Under the pieces are notes generated by a model. The model searched no databases and was not told the DNA's origin. It saw only the letters and a program-made list of their open reading frames with translations. Made by a program: the position numbers and the translations under genes. DNA of 64,000 bases, taken from the NCBI RefSeq assembly GCF_018350175.1, contig NC_058368.1:6014001-6078000 (forward strand). Reading direction: 5' to 3'. Source of the stretch: Felis catus (Eukaryota). Each line of letters starts with the position of its first letter. Position 1 is the first letter of the stretch. Below are positions 8,221 to 46,954 of this stretch, piece after piece.

Positions 8221-9828
8221 CTGCGAAAACAGAGTTACACTATGAATTCTATGATACATTTTTCTTGTATTTTGCTTAACGCTAAAAGCCAGGCTACTCG
8301 TGGCATACCCAGGACATGAAAACAACATGCGCTGTTAAATAAAAAGGGGAAAGAGACTCTTAGCACATCGAAACCATCCCTCGAGCATGGCGTGCAACGC
8401 TACATCATGGGAAAGCCACCAGTGCGCCTACTTAACGCTTCAGTCATATGTCACCTTCCCAAGAGAATACTGTTAGTACGTTTTGAATTCAGAGGCTTGG
8501 ACTGTATTCTGAAGCTGACTGTATTTGAAGCTTTCAAAACTTAATTGTCTAAGATAGCATCCTTTCCAAACAGTTAAAGCCAGAAGGTCAGTTATCGTAA
8601 CCGAATCTTGCTTCTTCTTGAGGCGGAAGGGAAATTTTTTGGAGGCCTGGGAGAATAACATTGCTTGGGTACAAATTACCTGTGGAGAGGGCTCCGGGGC
8701 CATGCCCCACTGTTTAAAGATAGGAGAAATAAAGCGACAAGCAGACTGGCAGTTTTCTGATGGACGCAAGGGTAGATGAGGTTGTAAAGGAGATCCTTTA
8801 ACAGATTTAGAACAGCTCTCAGGCCTGTATTTCTAGACTTGGGTCTAGAGAGTGGATACTCTCTATGCTGCCTTATTTCCTGCTTGTTATTTCTTTGTGC
8901 AGCCAAAGAGTATCTATTCTGAAGCGCTCAATAATTCTCGTGGTTACTTTAAAAGCAGTCAGACACAGGAAGAAAGGGAGAGGTTCTAGGATCGCTGAGG
9001 CTATCAATGAAACCTGCCTTCCAAATAACTTGCCTCTGCCTGACTTCTCCATCTCTCTGCAGTGCACCCCAAGCCCGTCGTGTTGCTCCCAGGCCCCCCT
9101 CTCTCTTTTCCTCAGTTAAAGCCTCGCCGGAGCTGGTCACTTCACTGTAGCTCCTGACTGGCACTGCCTTCTCACTACAGTCCAAGCTTCTGAATGTAGC
9201 TCACGAAGCTTCTCATTACCTGGCCTCGGCCAACATCTTTAGCTTCTTCTCTACACTCCAGACAAAATTTTTACCATTTCCAGAACATTTCACATGCTAG
9301 AGAAAATTTTAACACTTTGAATTTTCACAATGCAAAACATATAAGACCTTCTTGGAGAAAAGCCTACCTCTTTCCCTCCCCCACTGGGTCCCCGGTTCTC
9401 ACAAAAGGCGACCAGTGTTTCCGGTTGCTGTGCCTTTGCTCACACGGTCTTCTGTGCCCCAAAGGTCTTCTCTTCTTCCACTGACCTCGACTTACTGTTG
9501 AGCTCCTCATTCTCTAGTCTTTGGCTCAAATGTCTTCTTTTTCAGTACTTTTCCTGAACCACTCGCCCTCAAGCCCAGAGTAGGCCGTGTTCCCCTAGCA
9601 CTTTGTAAATATTTCTTAAAGCACTTGTATGTTAAGACTACCCCCTCTCCAAAGGGAGAACTACATCTGACAATTCATCCTTGAATTACTAATTTCATGC
9701 CCAGGTTTTGGTACACACTATGTGATCTCTATAAATTTTTGCTAATGCCAATCTTCTGTTTAAGGTCAATTCAACAGATTCATTAAATTCTTATCTCAAA
9801 GCTTGGCCGTTTTGAAGGCACTGTTTCT

Positions 9829-12157: not shown

Positions 12158-12257
12158 CTGCAATATAGTAATGAACAGGAAGAAAGCATTAGCAGCTTTG
12201 CTAAACTGCAGACACAGATATCGAGGGAGGAATGACCATATGCTGTACTTGGCTGTG
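12158..12257 (-). CDS. ATP8A2-like exon 3 (100 nt), STAKY motif and TM1
   Basis: cag|C ... CAG|gtaata. Encodes [34 protein letters not shown]. Confidence 0.93.
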
Positions 12258-21560: not shown

Positions 21561-21705
21561 CTGATGGAGTTTTTGCAGAAGTTGTTCCTAATGGGCTCAT
21601 TGAGGTAAATGGTGCGGACTTTGGACGCGTCTGATCCTTGAAGAGAGTGTTGGCAGCCCATCTTTTCCTCCACCTTCTGACAGATTAAAGAGAAATCAAC
21701 AGGTC
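21561..21705 (-). CDS. ATP8A2-like exon 2 (145 nt); first ATG at 21661-21659
   Basis: Acceptor ctttgtcttcttgttgtag|G and donor AG|gtgag. Encodes GPVDFSLICQKVEEKMGCQHS...RTIYLNEP...KNSI. ATG is in strong Kozak context (AAGATGG). Confidence 0.88.
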
Positions 21706-22129
21706 CTACAACAAGAAGACAAAGGAATGTTACCCAGAAGTGCAACTGAAATCAGGCTCCAGGGAACGCATCAAGTGCATTGCATGTTGGACCTCTGTTG
21801 AGTCCCCAGGGAGGAGACTGTTTTCCTAGCCTCCAGTTCTTCACCTGTCCCATTTCTCCAGGGACCAGACATCCAAGACCTCCCCTGTCACCCTGCATTG
21901 GCGAGGCGGTTCTGGTTCCCTCATGGCTACCACATCCCCATTCCCTCCCCAGCCCTGGAGGCTCTGGGTGGGCACTGACATTCAGCCCGGGCAGGAGACT
22001 GGGGAAGATGCAGTGAGATAGGGCCCAGCAGCTGGCCTCAGAAAAAGAATGGGCGAGGGGAGAAGGTGAATAGGGCTGGGGGAAGCGGAGGGGAGAGTGT
22101 CTTGGCTCAAGAGCAGTAGCTCCATGACC

Positions 22130-22751
22130 AGAGGGCAGCCCCCTGACCAAGATGGCCTTAACATTCCCCCCAGCTTGACTAAATTGGAAATAGATGCCTT
22201 CTTGTCTCTAGTCCTGAATTCCCTTTCCTTTTTACTAACGTGAAGCATTTACTTTGGAAAAGGTGATTGTATGTTGTTATTCTACTCCCTTTGAAATGTA
22301 TAGAAATGCCCTGAAAAGCCCCTTGCCAGCTTTAAGATCCATGGGGAAGCTTTTCTCAAGGACCTGGGAGATCCCTGAAATGTAATCATCAAAGAAGTTC
22401 TCCATTCCATGGTAGGGTAGGAACCTAACTTCAGGGGGTGCCTTGCTCGAAGTGTAAAATTCTCACATGTCATGAAGATAAGAGAAAATGTAGTTATTCT
22501 TTGGGTAAAGCCAGTTAGCAGACACAGGTGGCCAACAATCCTCCTCCTTCCCCACCCCAGCTTTTTAAAACTCCCCCACCTTTGTTTCAGCCAAGGTGAG
22601 CTCAGTCTCTCTCCCCTATTGAAATAGCCTTGAATAGTCTTCCTGGCCCCATTAACTTCACCCAGGTAACATATATTTTGATATCTCCTACCCCCAAAAT
22701 AAGTGAGATTTTTGACCAAGGGGCCAAGGAAAGTCTCATTTGTTTCTGACA
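22130..22751 (+). mobile_element. ERV1-class (MER4-group-like) LTR fragment
   Basis: ttctcaaggacctggga...tgaaatgtaatcatcaa...gggtaggaacctaacttc phrases, ends ...ttctgaca. Confidence 0.55.
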
Positions 22752-31650: not shown

Positions 31651-31992
31651 TTTTAAAAACAAACCACATACCACTAGAGTATATTTTAATGCATATAACT
31701 GACACAGGTTTTCTACCCAGATGTTTTAAATGATTCCCACAAATCAATTAAAAAATATATAAAAACATAAGGAAAATGTATGAATTGGCAATTAATTTAG
31801 AGAAAGATAAAAGCAAAATATATATATGACGATAGCTCAAATTCAATCAGGCTAAAGCTAAAAACCAAAGAGCATGACAAGGGTGGGTGAGGGCATGGGG
31901 CATTAGAAACCCGGAGGGGACAGGTGGGAGTATAAATTAATAAAAGCATTTTAGAGAGTAAGTGAAGACTGCAGGTGTCCCACAATCCAGTA

Positions 31993-32465
31993 GAGTAGTC
32001 GCCCCACATCCATGGGCGATGGGTTCCAAGACCCCCAGTGGATGCTTGAAACCACAGAGAGTACCAAGTCTTACAACCACGATGTTATTTGCTATGCATA
32101 CACACCCATAGAAGTTTAATTTGTAAGTGAGGCAGGGTAAGAGATTAACAGCAATCATGACAAAATAGACCAATTAGACCAACATACTGTAACACAAGTT
32201 ATGTGGATGTGGTCTCCCTCTCTCTCTCTCTCTCAAAATATCTGAAAGTACTGTACTGACCTTCTTCTTGTGATGATGTGAGATGTTAAAATGCCCACAT
32301 GATGAGACAAAGCAAGGTGAATGATGTGGGCATCATGACCTAATGTCAGGCTACCAGTGACCTTCTGACCATGCGTCAGAGGAGGGTCCTCTGCTTCTGG
32401 ACTGTGGTCGACCACAGATGACTGAAACCATGGAAAGCAAAACCACAGTTAAGAGGGCACCACTG
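31993..32465 (-). mobile_element. MER44-like TcMar-Tigger element
   Basis: gttccaagacccccagtggatg...actgaaaccatggaaagcaaaaccac, degenerate TIRs flanked by TA at 31991 and 32466. Confidence 0.8.
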
Positions 32466-33635: not shown

Positions 33636-33711
33636 CAGTCAGGCTACGGACTCCACTTTTGACTGGAAAACTGACCTTTTTAGGGTTAATATCCTGAATG
33701 TCTTCCCTCAG
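33636..33711 (-). CDS. Candidate exon 1 (ATP8A2 exon-1 homologue); in-frame segment LREDIQDINPKKVSFPVKSGVRSLT+G starting at a CTG, may be 5'UTR only
   Basis: Strong donor CTG|gtgagt at 33635. Phase 1 matches the exon-2 acceptor. KVSFPVKSGVRSLTG aligns with remembered ATP8A2 KMSLPRRSRIRSSVG. No ATG; in-frame TGA at 33729-33727. Confidence 0.5.
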
Positions 33712-33729
33712 CCCAAACAGCTCTAATCA

Positions 33730-33900
33730 GGACAGTGGCCACTGGGCTTGGCCTGGAGTGAGCTGAAACCCTCCCAGCTTGCCTCTGGGAGTTCTGACAG
33801 TTGAGGGCTCAGCACCGCCCTCCGCACTGCGCTTCTGAGATGGGGCTGCCCACATTCCCCGTCCTTCCACGCTCACCAAGTGTGCTTTCCTTGCCCTCTG
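33730..33900 (-). promoter_or_regulatory. Candidate proximal promoter of the flippase gene
   Basis: Unique, locally GC-rich sequence just upstream of exon 1, with a MYB-type site TGACAGTTG (33795-33803) and a GC box CCGCCC (33815-33820). Confidence 0.35.
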
Positions 33901-34124
33901 AAGTACCTCCCAGGCTTCAACTCAGCCTAGAAGAAGGATAAGAGAGACTTTCCAAGCTTCAGAGCTAATTCGCTTTTCCTCCGAATGGTGAAAAAAAAGT
34001 ATGTAATGTGCCTTACTAACAGGTGAACACATGAAGATAAGACCAGACCTCACTGGAAACAATGTGAACCTAATGTAGATTTGATAACTGATGATTTCTG
34101 CCAATAGCGTCATAGAGTAAGTCA

Positions 34125-44450: not shown

Positions 44451-44919
44451 ATGGGCTTGTACTTCCTAAAATGCAGCATCTAAGTAATCCATCAGTCTTG
44501 CTTCTAAGATGTAAAATGGGCCCGCCTAATCACAAATCTACATTCTTTCCCAAGATTTAACAGGAAATACCTGAAGACTCAACCATGATCCCTAAAAGAG
44601 TTGAACATTTGCTCCTATGGTTCTTCATGCAACAGTGCTGGGTGTCTGGTGAGTTGCCCCTGTGCAACCATTTAATACTTGCCCGATGAGTCTTCTCATA
44701 CATACACCATTGATTGCCTTCGTTTCCTCTAGCACGATAATTGGTGGAAATAATACATTATAGGGAATATACAGCCTTAAGAAGAAATGTTTTTGCAATG
44801 CGTAGCTTAAAAACAAAACAAAACAAAAAACAAAAAACAGAGCAAATCTCGTAAAGGGCCTCTGGGAAAGTAAAGCTGTCCCCTGTACAGCCTTCCAGAA
44901 GCTGACCCTCCAAATAGGG

Positions 44920-45900
44920 AGACAAAGCGGGAACACAAGCACCGACAACACAAGCTGCCACGGAACGGACGCAGGGCTCGCTTTTCCCAGTGGCCGGTGA
45001 TGCGGGAAGCCATCCTCTCTGCTTCTCGCTCTTCCCCCAGCCCCGGCCACGAACAACCCCGTGAGAGAAGTGCTGGCACTCGCCCCACTCACAGATGAAG
45101 TGGGTGCCAGGAGGCCAGGTCGTCAGCCAGTCACCGGACTTGAAGTGACCCAGCCGGCGCTGCCGTGTCCCCAGAGCGCCCAGCCACTACCTCTCTCGCG
45201 CCCGCGTTTCTCTGCAGAGGGCTCGCAGGGGGCCCCGGTGCGCTAGTTCGGACGAAGTGCGGGACAGGGATGTCGCGGGCGGCCGGGTCCGCAACCTGGC
45301 GTCACACCACACGGCCGGCTCGGGGAACTGCGCCCAGCGCGCGCTCCAGCCGGACTCGGGGCCGCGCCCGCCACCGACGCACCCGCGGTTCGGCGGCCTT
45401 TGAGCCTCGGCTAGGAGGCCACGCGAGCGCGCGAGCGCGCGCACGCGCACACGCTCACGCTCACGCAAAGGCGCGCACGCGCACACCCGTCAAGGGCTAG
45501 ACCCTGAACTGCCGGAGCTTTGGAGGTGGGCCTCCTGGGCCGCCGTTGTCCGCTCGGCCGGGCGACACCGACGGTCGCGCGTGTCTTAGCCCTATGCTCC
45601 CACATGTGAGCCGCGCTCTGGGTGTGCTGACGCTCCGTCCTCGGATCACCGCTTGCAAACCGCAGAAGAGGGCGGAAGCGTCAGGTTTCTGTCCCCTGCG
45701 CCTTTTTTTCTCACCCGCCCACCGCCGACCGGACCTTCGCGCCGCCGACTTCTCCAGAGCTTCGCCCGGTCTGAGGTTCGGGGTGCGTGCTGTCTCTGCA
45801 GCCCGCCGAGCCACGGGCCTGAGGACAGCTTGTGCTGCACCATGGGCACCTCTGGCCCTGGCTGCAACGCGGGGGATCCCAGCCTTCGGACTGGAAACCT
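44920..45900. promoter_or_regulatory. CpG island / probable promoter
   Basis: About 1 kb, very GC- and CpG-rich against an AT-rich, CpG-depleted background. Two GCGCACGCGC NRF1-type motifs (45439-45448, 45473-45482) and a GCGGAAG ETS-like motif. Confidence 0.85.
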
Positions 45901-46954
45901 GGCAAGAAACAATACGACAGAAAAAAGATCTCGAAACTTAAGCCGGCTCAGAAAAGGTGGTTGTTTGGTGGTCATAAGGGTCTAATAGTCTTGGGGATGG
46001 TGGAGTATGAGAGTTCTTGGGGTGTCCGGTGTAGCTGGTAAGAATGTCAGGCCGCGAACTCTGGTGAGCAAGAAATATCGAGCCTCTTAATATTCTGGAT
46101 CTCAGTTAATTTCTGACTCCTCGGAACCACAGCCAGTCACCGTTTCCTGCTCCCATCTAATCGGCTGGTTACAAAATAAAAATTACCCCAGTCCTTCTTG
46201 GGGTTACCAGGGATTAGACCAAATTCTGACCTGGTGGGGAAATTCATGGTTTAGTTGCCTACCAAAAGACACATTGCCAGTAGGTGACAGGATTCACACC
46301 CAGTATTCCTGGACTCCAGAGGTTGTACTCTCAACCAAGATACTAGATCTCTTTCTGAGATGTTTAGCCTCAGCCCTGTTTGAAACCAGGTTGGATCACA
46401 GTGCTCTGAAGCATAAAGGACCCTGGACCAGAAGTCAGAAGGTGACCTAAAACAAGACTCTATAGTTCTCTGATCTTCAGTTTCCTCTGGATGAAATGGG
46501 GTTAACGTCCAAGGTCCAGGAATTCTGGGGAGGGTAACTGTTCGTTTGAAGGCCACCCTCCAGCTCATCCTAATGATGGCTCCTGGCCGACAGATTGTCA
46601 AGCATAGGTGCAGCAGCTCCAAGGTGAAGTGGCCTCATTGATGCAAAGCTAGATTCTATACCACTCAACTGGTACACAAGGACAGGTGAGAAATGCTAAT
46701 GGTGCGAAGGAGGCAAAGGAGGGAGCTACCCACTCCCTCCACTCCCTCTCCACCTCCCCTCAAACAGACATAGACAACGTAACTGTGCCACATGGGAAGA
46801 GAGGTTGACTCTTGAGACGATGAGTCTAGTCAAAATGCTACTGATCATTTCAGAGAGAACCCTCACATCATATCTGATTGAGTACCAGCTCCTCCTGGAA
46901 TTAGCAGCAGTCCAGCTGAATTTACATTTCACTTTCCAAAACAAATGTAACCAA

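Follow-up and report, generated by a model that had tools for sequence, protein, structure and literature searches.

The window, that is, the whole 64,000-nucleotide stretch of cat DNA analysed here (positions 6014001-6078000 of its contig), holds the 5' part of the annotated cat gene 'phospholipid-transporting ATPase IB-like', a paralogue of ATP8A2, together with a single CpG island and a series of upstream segments that related species use as exons (Table 1). The exon-2 peptide finds the cat IB-like models with 100% identity from its Met onward, and alignment of these models to the window gives 100% identity for exons 2, 4 and 5, 94% for exon 6 and 92% for exon 3 (the match overruns exon ends). 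The Pfam families precomputed for the cat models are PF16209, PF00122, PF13246 and PF16212, and over their first 140 residues the models are 65-68% identical to ATP8A2 proteins. Between the two cat paralogues, exon 2 agrees in length, in the 44-nt offset of its ATG and in its phase-1 entry, which bears out the identification of the gene as an ATP8A2 paralogue in an initial annotation of the window made from its letters. Both the gene and its start in exon 2 are already annotated.

Table 1. Positions of the features discussed, counted from the first letter of the window.
Feature	Position	Strand	Remarks
CpG island, the only one of the window	44850..45950	.	GC 0.667; CpG observed/expected 0.95
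Best candidate homologue of ATP8A2 exon 1	45715..45784	-	70 nt; ends G/GTGAGA; phase 1
Upstream exons of seal models (three models)	45.9-44.9 kb, incl. 44890-45033 and 45483-45901	-	placed by tblastn
ATG-started uORF	33727..33855	-	42 codons; in frame with 33636-33729; ends at the TGA directly before it
Stretch singled out by the initial annotation	33636..33729	-	TGA, 30 sense codons plus one base, CTG, GTGAGT donor
Upstream exon of stoat model	32259-32324	-	placed by tblastn
Upstream exon of dog isoform X1 (39-aa extension)	31670..31735	-	82% identity over 22 aa
Upstream exon of raccoon dog model	22632-22739	-	placed by tblastn
Species-specific extensions (puma, lynx, fox, raccoon dog, badger)	21850..21981	-	just upstream of exon 2
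Exon 2	21561..21705	-	145 nt; acceptor AG at 21707-21706 behind a pyrimidine tract; annotated ATG at 21661-21659
Exon 3	12158..12257	-	100 nt; same gene
Exons 4 to 7	near 8223, 6546, 5676 and 3836	-	same gene; cat model maps to exons 2-7

On the chromosome, the two paralogues stand tail to tail, about 0.3 Mb apart. On the contig that also contains the window, ATP8A2 proper occupies the plus strand (exon 1 at 5168840, exon 2 at 5259576), and the exons of the IB-like gene run along the minus strand from 6059715 down to below 5941631. Among the best 120 of 812 matches, models of the IB-like paralogue come from carnivores, ruminants, camelids, a pig relative, lagomorphs and several rodents, and furthermore from strepsirrhine primates, xenarthrans, afrotherians and eulipotyphlans. 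ATP8A2P1 was considered as a syntenic human pseudogene and set aside, since it lies on chromosome 10 according to a table in PMC3974860. A stoat model of the IB-like gene bears the name RNF6 isoform X2, which suggests that the neighbouring RNF6 was merged into it by annotation.

The N-terminus of ATP8A2 itself provides the background against which the window has to be read. According to the available part of PMC11750469, the long form of human ATP8A2 carries 40 residues before the canonical Met and a Met at position 13, and the human and felid long-form models likewise show 40 residues ahead of the canonical Met and Met13. The initial annotation had given this difference between the long and short forms correctly, as it had the 76 coding nucleotides of ATP8A2 exon 1, the distance from ATG to donor in cat ATP8A2 being 76 nt. 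According to the same part of PMC11750469, the extension raises expression in transfected cells, neither ATPase activity nor localisation depends on it, and it is missing from mouse ATP8A2; its loss is therefore tolerated.

Within exon 2 of the paralogue, the sequence on the two sides of the annotated ATG has fared differently. The 44 nt before it (21662-21705) are the same as in ATP8A2 at 29 of 44 positions (66%), as against 17 of 45 (38%) in the next 45 nt. The differences in the 14 pre-ATG codons fall 5, 6 and 4 times on codon positions 1, 2 and 3, a split that carries no coding signature. Purines predominate in the segment, and it takes in the start context, which is GAAAAG ATG G, with A at -3 and G at +4. 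At the protein level, the residues before the Met are recognisably alike across orders and stand open in frame in extended models of many orders, and four felid models differ at three of the 15 pre-Met residues. The better preservation of these 44 nt could reflect coding or some other constraint; it is read here as a constraint on the RNA, probably on splicing or start context, and not on a protein.

From the start onward, the felid models read Met-Gly-Cys-x-x-Ser (window positions 21644-21661, minus strand), which would fit the N-myristoylation consensus with an adjoining palmitoylated Cys, an arrangement known from G-alpha-i and Src-family kinases. The models of most other carnivores and ungulates start Met-Gly-Trp, a combination that the PROSITE pattern presumably disfavours, and a few species are without the Gly.

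The initial annotation had drawn attention to positions 33636-33729 on the minus strand, which it took to be the homologue of ATP8A2 exon 1 with a CTG at the place of the ancestral start codon. Its description of the letters is accurate throughout. The open frame that follows the TGA at 33729-33727 ends at 33636, with the GT of the donor directly after it at 33635-33634, and the CTG at 33711-33709 lies 76 nt from this donor and 40 codons ahead of the exon-2 ATG. If 33636 is assumed to be spliced to 21705, the frame stays open from the TGA through to the exon-2 ATG, and between 33726 and that ATG the assumed leader contains no other ATG in any frame. The last base of this phase-1 donor exon, a G, completes a Gly codon with exon 2, as does that of site 45715, and position 13 of the stretch is Val, as the initial annotation had stated, where the ATP8A2 long form has Met. 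Matching eight of nine consensus positions, the donor is a good one, and an acceptor-like site with a pyrimidine tract at 33927 would bound a 291-nt cassette (33926-33636); if entered in phase 1, this cassette meets a stop at once. The uORF that precedes the stretch matters only if transcripts include 33727-33855. The stretch is single copy in the cat genome and lies outside any CpG island, CpG observed/expected being 0.27-0.30 at 33.5-34.0 kb.

An open frame of 31 codons has a chance of about 0.23 under uniform codons, and 1106 of the 3717 GT sites on the minus strand of the window are preceded by 25 open codons in the phase in question. On the same strand, the region upstream of exon 2 has twelve donor-like sites that match at least eight of nine consensus positions. 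The 45-codon leader contains 11 in-frame near-cognate codons, three of which, including that at 33711, are CTG. In a favourable start context, position -3 is a purine and position +4 is G; around the 33711 CTG, these two positions read G and A.

Exon 1 of the cat's own ATP8A2 (76 nt, ATG to donor) served as the reference for the homology tests. Without gaps, the stretch is identical to it at 22 of 76 positions, a value equalled by 17% of the 76-mers of the window. In a donor-anchored gapped DNA alignment of the 76-nt exon to all 3717 minus-strand GT sites, site 33636 scores -16 and ranks 893rd, and 24% of shuffles equal that score. At the DNA level, the likeness is thus that expected by chance, and with a better candidate within an island 12 kb away, the claim that 33636-33729 is the exon-1 homologue is not supported.

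The initial annotation had also pointed to similarity of sequence, and here the peptide stands apart from the DNA. Ungapped peptide likeness to ATP8A2 exon 1 places the stretch 6th among 722 open upstream GT sites (z about 2.8), a gapped peptide scan places it 14th of 1402, both within the top 1%, and among the 30 sites with a GTRAG donor its peptide ranks best, at -1.5 with the next at -14.3. SINE-derived and other unrelated sites reach equal or better peptide scores, and the ungapped right-aligned scan misses site 45715, whose exon is two codons shorter. Of the four residues that the stretch has in common with the felid ATP8A2 peptide, three are Ser, encoded by AGY here and by TCN there, that is, by different codon families. 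Given twelve strong donor-like sites upstream of exon 2, and given that about 30% of GT sites are open in the phase required, we estimate at roughly 3% the probability that one of the twelve carries a top-1% peptide score by chance; such a likeness is unusual, not compelling, and the resemblance of the peptide to ATP8A2 is most likely a coincidence. The single database match of the 30-aa peptide, to an 864-aa tandem-repeat translation (E 5e-5) unrelated to flippases, was dismissed as spurious; the library searched holds one representative per 50% cluster and could hide N-terminal variants of orthologues.

A likelier counterpart of ATP8A2 exon 1 lies about 12 kb further upstream, at 45784-45715, within the CpG island that is the probable promoter and first exon of the gene. 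In the donor-anchored DNA alignment, site 45715 ranks first of the 3717 GT sites with a score of 8 (mean -20, sd 5.7), which none of 2000 mononucleotide shuffles and one of 3000 dinucleotide shuffles equalled, and it also heads the 74 GT sites that the island contains. Across 1200 island positions it is again the best locus, an anchor shifted by 3 nt (45712) scoring 10 and the next distinct locus 2; under a best-of-island null, a score of 8 was reached by 3 of 60 shuffles and a score of 10 by none of 60, so that with the whole island as search space the homology is only moderately significant. The best blastn match of ATP8A2 exon 1 is this same locus (66% over 79 nt, E 0.33), and the gapped peptide scan ranks site 45715 3rd of 1402. 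In the alignment, 47 of 76 columns are identical, comparable to the 29 of 44 found in the pre-ATG part of exon 2. The candidate furthermore has in common with cat ATP8A2 exon 1 the GTGAGA donor, the phase, the final G and the location in a CpG island.

At this locus, ACC stands in place of the ancestral ATG and AAG in place of Met13. Together, these changes suggest that the paralogue has lost the 40-residue extension known from ATP8A2. One of the two readings offered by the initial annotation, that the start had been lost and the region was decaying as 5'UTR, is thereby right in that the paralogue has lost the ancestral Met1, and misplaced in that the loss is seen in this other exon and not at 33636-33729. 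On the assumption that 45715 is spliced to 21705, an uninterrupted frame runs from 45937 as far as the exon-2 AUG and contains neither an in-frame AUG nor a stop; it covers 74 codons of the island exon, and no ATG occurs from 45937 to the donor. An in-frame CTG inside 45784-45715 has G at both -3 and +4, and an out-of-frame ATG lies upstream within the island. The island exon would be the one used in the cat.

Eighty stored IB-like models reach into the N-terminal region; since a species contributes several isoforms, they are not independent of one another. Of these, 53 begin at the exon-2 Met or just past it, and the remaining 27 extend further upstream; the six cat isoforms examined start at the exon-2 Met or further downstream. 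In 26 of the 27 extended models (those with at least five residues upstream of exon 2), no extension resembles the 33.6 kb peptide, the best local BLOSUM62 score of 22 being noise, and the extensions vary from species to species. Placed in the cat by tblastn, none of the upstream exons of the extended models falls at 33636-33729. The upstream exons of northern elephant seal and of dog isoform X1 had been considered as orthologues of the 33.6 kb stretch and were rejected when tblastn placed them at 45033-44890 and 31735-31670. The seal models read the island in two other frames, with donors about 210 to 825 nt further on than 45715, and a sifaka model has a junction peptide in common with one of them that maps to the island. 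The cat lacks a start codon in the counterparts of upstream exons that were read (31.7 kb; 44.9-45.0 kb); at 31670-31735, specifically, the donor is good, an ATG is missing and a stop codon lies further upstream. This pattern suggests that the 5' leader is highly variable, with a number of first or second exons. As far as is known, non-AUG starts are seldom, if at all, annotated by the pipeline behind the 'isoform X' models; the silence of the models therefore says little about CUG initiation and cannot by itself exclude it. In one UniParc orthologue model, P0059 (1185 aa), four residues are missing at the position of the exon-2 start, no Met stands there, and the frame is open to the 5' end; in some lineage the start may thus lie upstream of exon 2.

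Taken together, the data favour one reading, held here with fair confidence: positions 33636-33729 are a chance open frame in intron 1, neither a homologue of ATP8A2 exon 1 nor translated. The stretch would be an open frame of unremarkable length beside a strong donor-like site, of which the first intron has a dozen; it is most likely intron-1 sequence, and at most a non-coding leader exon. The identity of the gene, the correspondence of exon 2, the DNA statistics and the points at which the models start are shown; that the stretch goes untranslated, and that the cat uses the island exon, is inferred. Translation would most likely start at the exon-2 AUG, the equivalent of the canonical Met of the ATP8A2 short form, and the true counterpart of ATP8A2 exon 1 would sit in the CpG-island promoter region with both ancestral Met codons lost.

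A rival account, in which the stretch is a genuine alternative non-coding leader (as a first exon or as the 291-nt cassette) spliced to exon 2 with the AUG start kept, can draw on the quality of the donor and the acceptor-like site, on the single-copy status of the stretch and on the many upstream exons, from 45.9 to 21.9 kb, that carnivore models use. It is nevertheless unlikely, for no stored model of any species uses the stretch, equally good donor-like sites number twelve within the same 42 kb, neither a CpG island nor any other promoter sign is present there, and the phase-1 cassette meets an immediate stop and carries an ATG-started uORF. Most improbable of all is the proposal put forward with the stretch, namely that it is an exon-1 homologue and that a flippase form longer by 40 residues, kept by selection, is initiated from its CUG at 33711. 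The open frame from CTG to ATG, the 76-nt spacing, the G at -3, the peptide score and the well-kept pre-ATG part of exon 2 all suit it. Against it stand the DNA comparison and the far better homologue elsewhere, and it fits poorly with the Ser codons, with a CTG that is only one among 11 near-cognate codons, is followed by A at +4 and precedes an AUG in optimal context, with the absence of codon-position bias in the pre-ATG differences and with the variation among felids in the pre-Met residues. Furthermore, most non-AUG extensions seen by ribosome profiling show no sign of selection, according to the available part of 10.1101/2022.05.02.490320.

An N-terminal extension could instead begin at a near-cognate codon within the CpG-island exon, spliced from 45715 to 21705. 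The 74 open codons, the phase-1 donor ending in G as in ATP8A2, the well-placed CTG, the kept pre-ATG part of exon 2 and model P0059, open upstream and without the exon-2 Met, would agree with such a start. GC-rich leaders are, however, often open by chance, the seal models read the island in other frames and with other donors, the ancestral start is now ACC, which is not near-cognate, and the out-of-frame ATG lies upstream; this origin of an extension is accordingly judged very improbable. That an AUG-less, N-terminally extended form is still made by either route, from a near-cognate start in the island exon (45937-45715) or, less likely, from the 33711 CTG, receives hardly more credence, even if it would account for the stronger preservation of the 44 nt ahead of the AUG relative to the next 45 nt. 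The preferred reading, a chance open frame in intron 1 with translation from exon 2, would accommodate the same contrast through constraint on the RNA.

If a CUG-started extension were real, the gene duplicate would offer a case in which a start codon was replaced by a near-cognate one, and a little-studied flippase paralogue would have two N-terminal forms. The useful remainder of the present analysis is a better-placed candidate for the ancestral first exon, in the CpG island and with its ATG changed to ACC. Additionally, it provides a practical lesson: where a short peptide likeness stands beside a good donor, the DNA of the paralogue is worth checking before homology is called.

Among known systems, ATP8A2 with its long and short N-terminal forms comes closest to the paralogue. 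The architecture of exon 2 (145 nt, ATG at offset 44, phase-1 entry) and a CpG-island first exon ending G/GTGAGA are common to both. Unlike ATP8A2, the paralogue has no ATG at either of the ancestral upstream Met positions, its models start at the exon-2 Met, its N-terminal tail after that Met is very different (17 of 45 nt identical), and its intron 1 spans about 24 kb as against about 90 kb. The mouse ATP8A2 gene, as described in the available part of PMC11750469, offers a close parallel to the cat paralogue, having lost the in-frame upstream AUG and using the canonical Met; that case concerns an orthologue in one lineage, whereas the present one concerns a separate paralogue found in many placental orders. 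With the conserved non-AUG-started extensions catalogued by Ivanov et al. 2011 (PMC3105428, available in part), the 33.6 kb stretch has in common an open upstream frame, an in-frame CUG and no intervening AUG. The available part of 10.1101/2022.05.02.490320 reports that most of the non-AUG extensions seen by ribosome profiling are without phylogenetic support. The stretch differs from the catalogued extensions in that the context of its CUG is only partly favourable, with A at +4, the main AUG stands in optimal context and the exon as such is unsupported.
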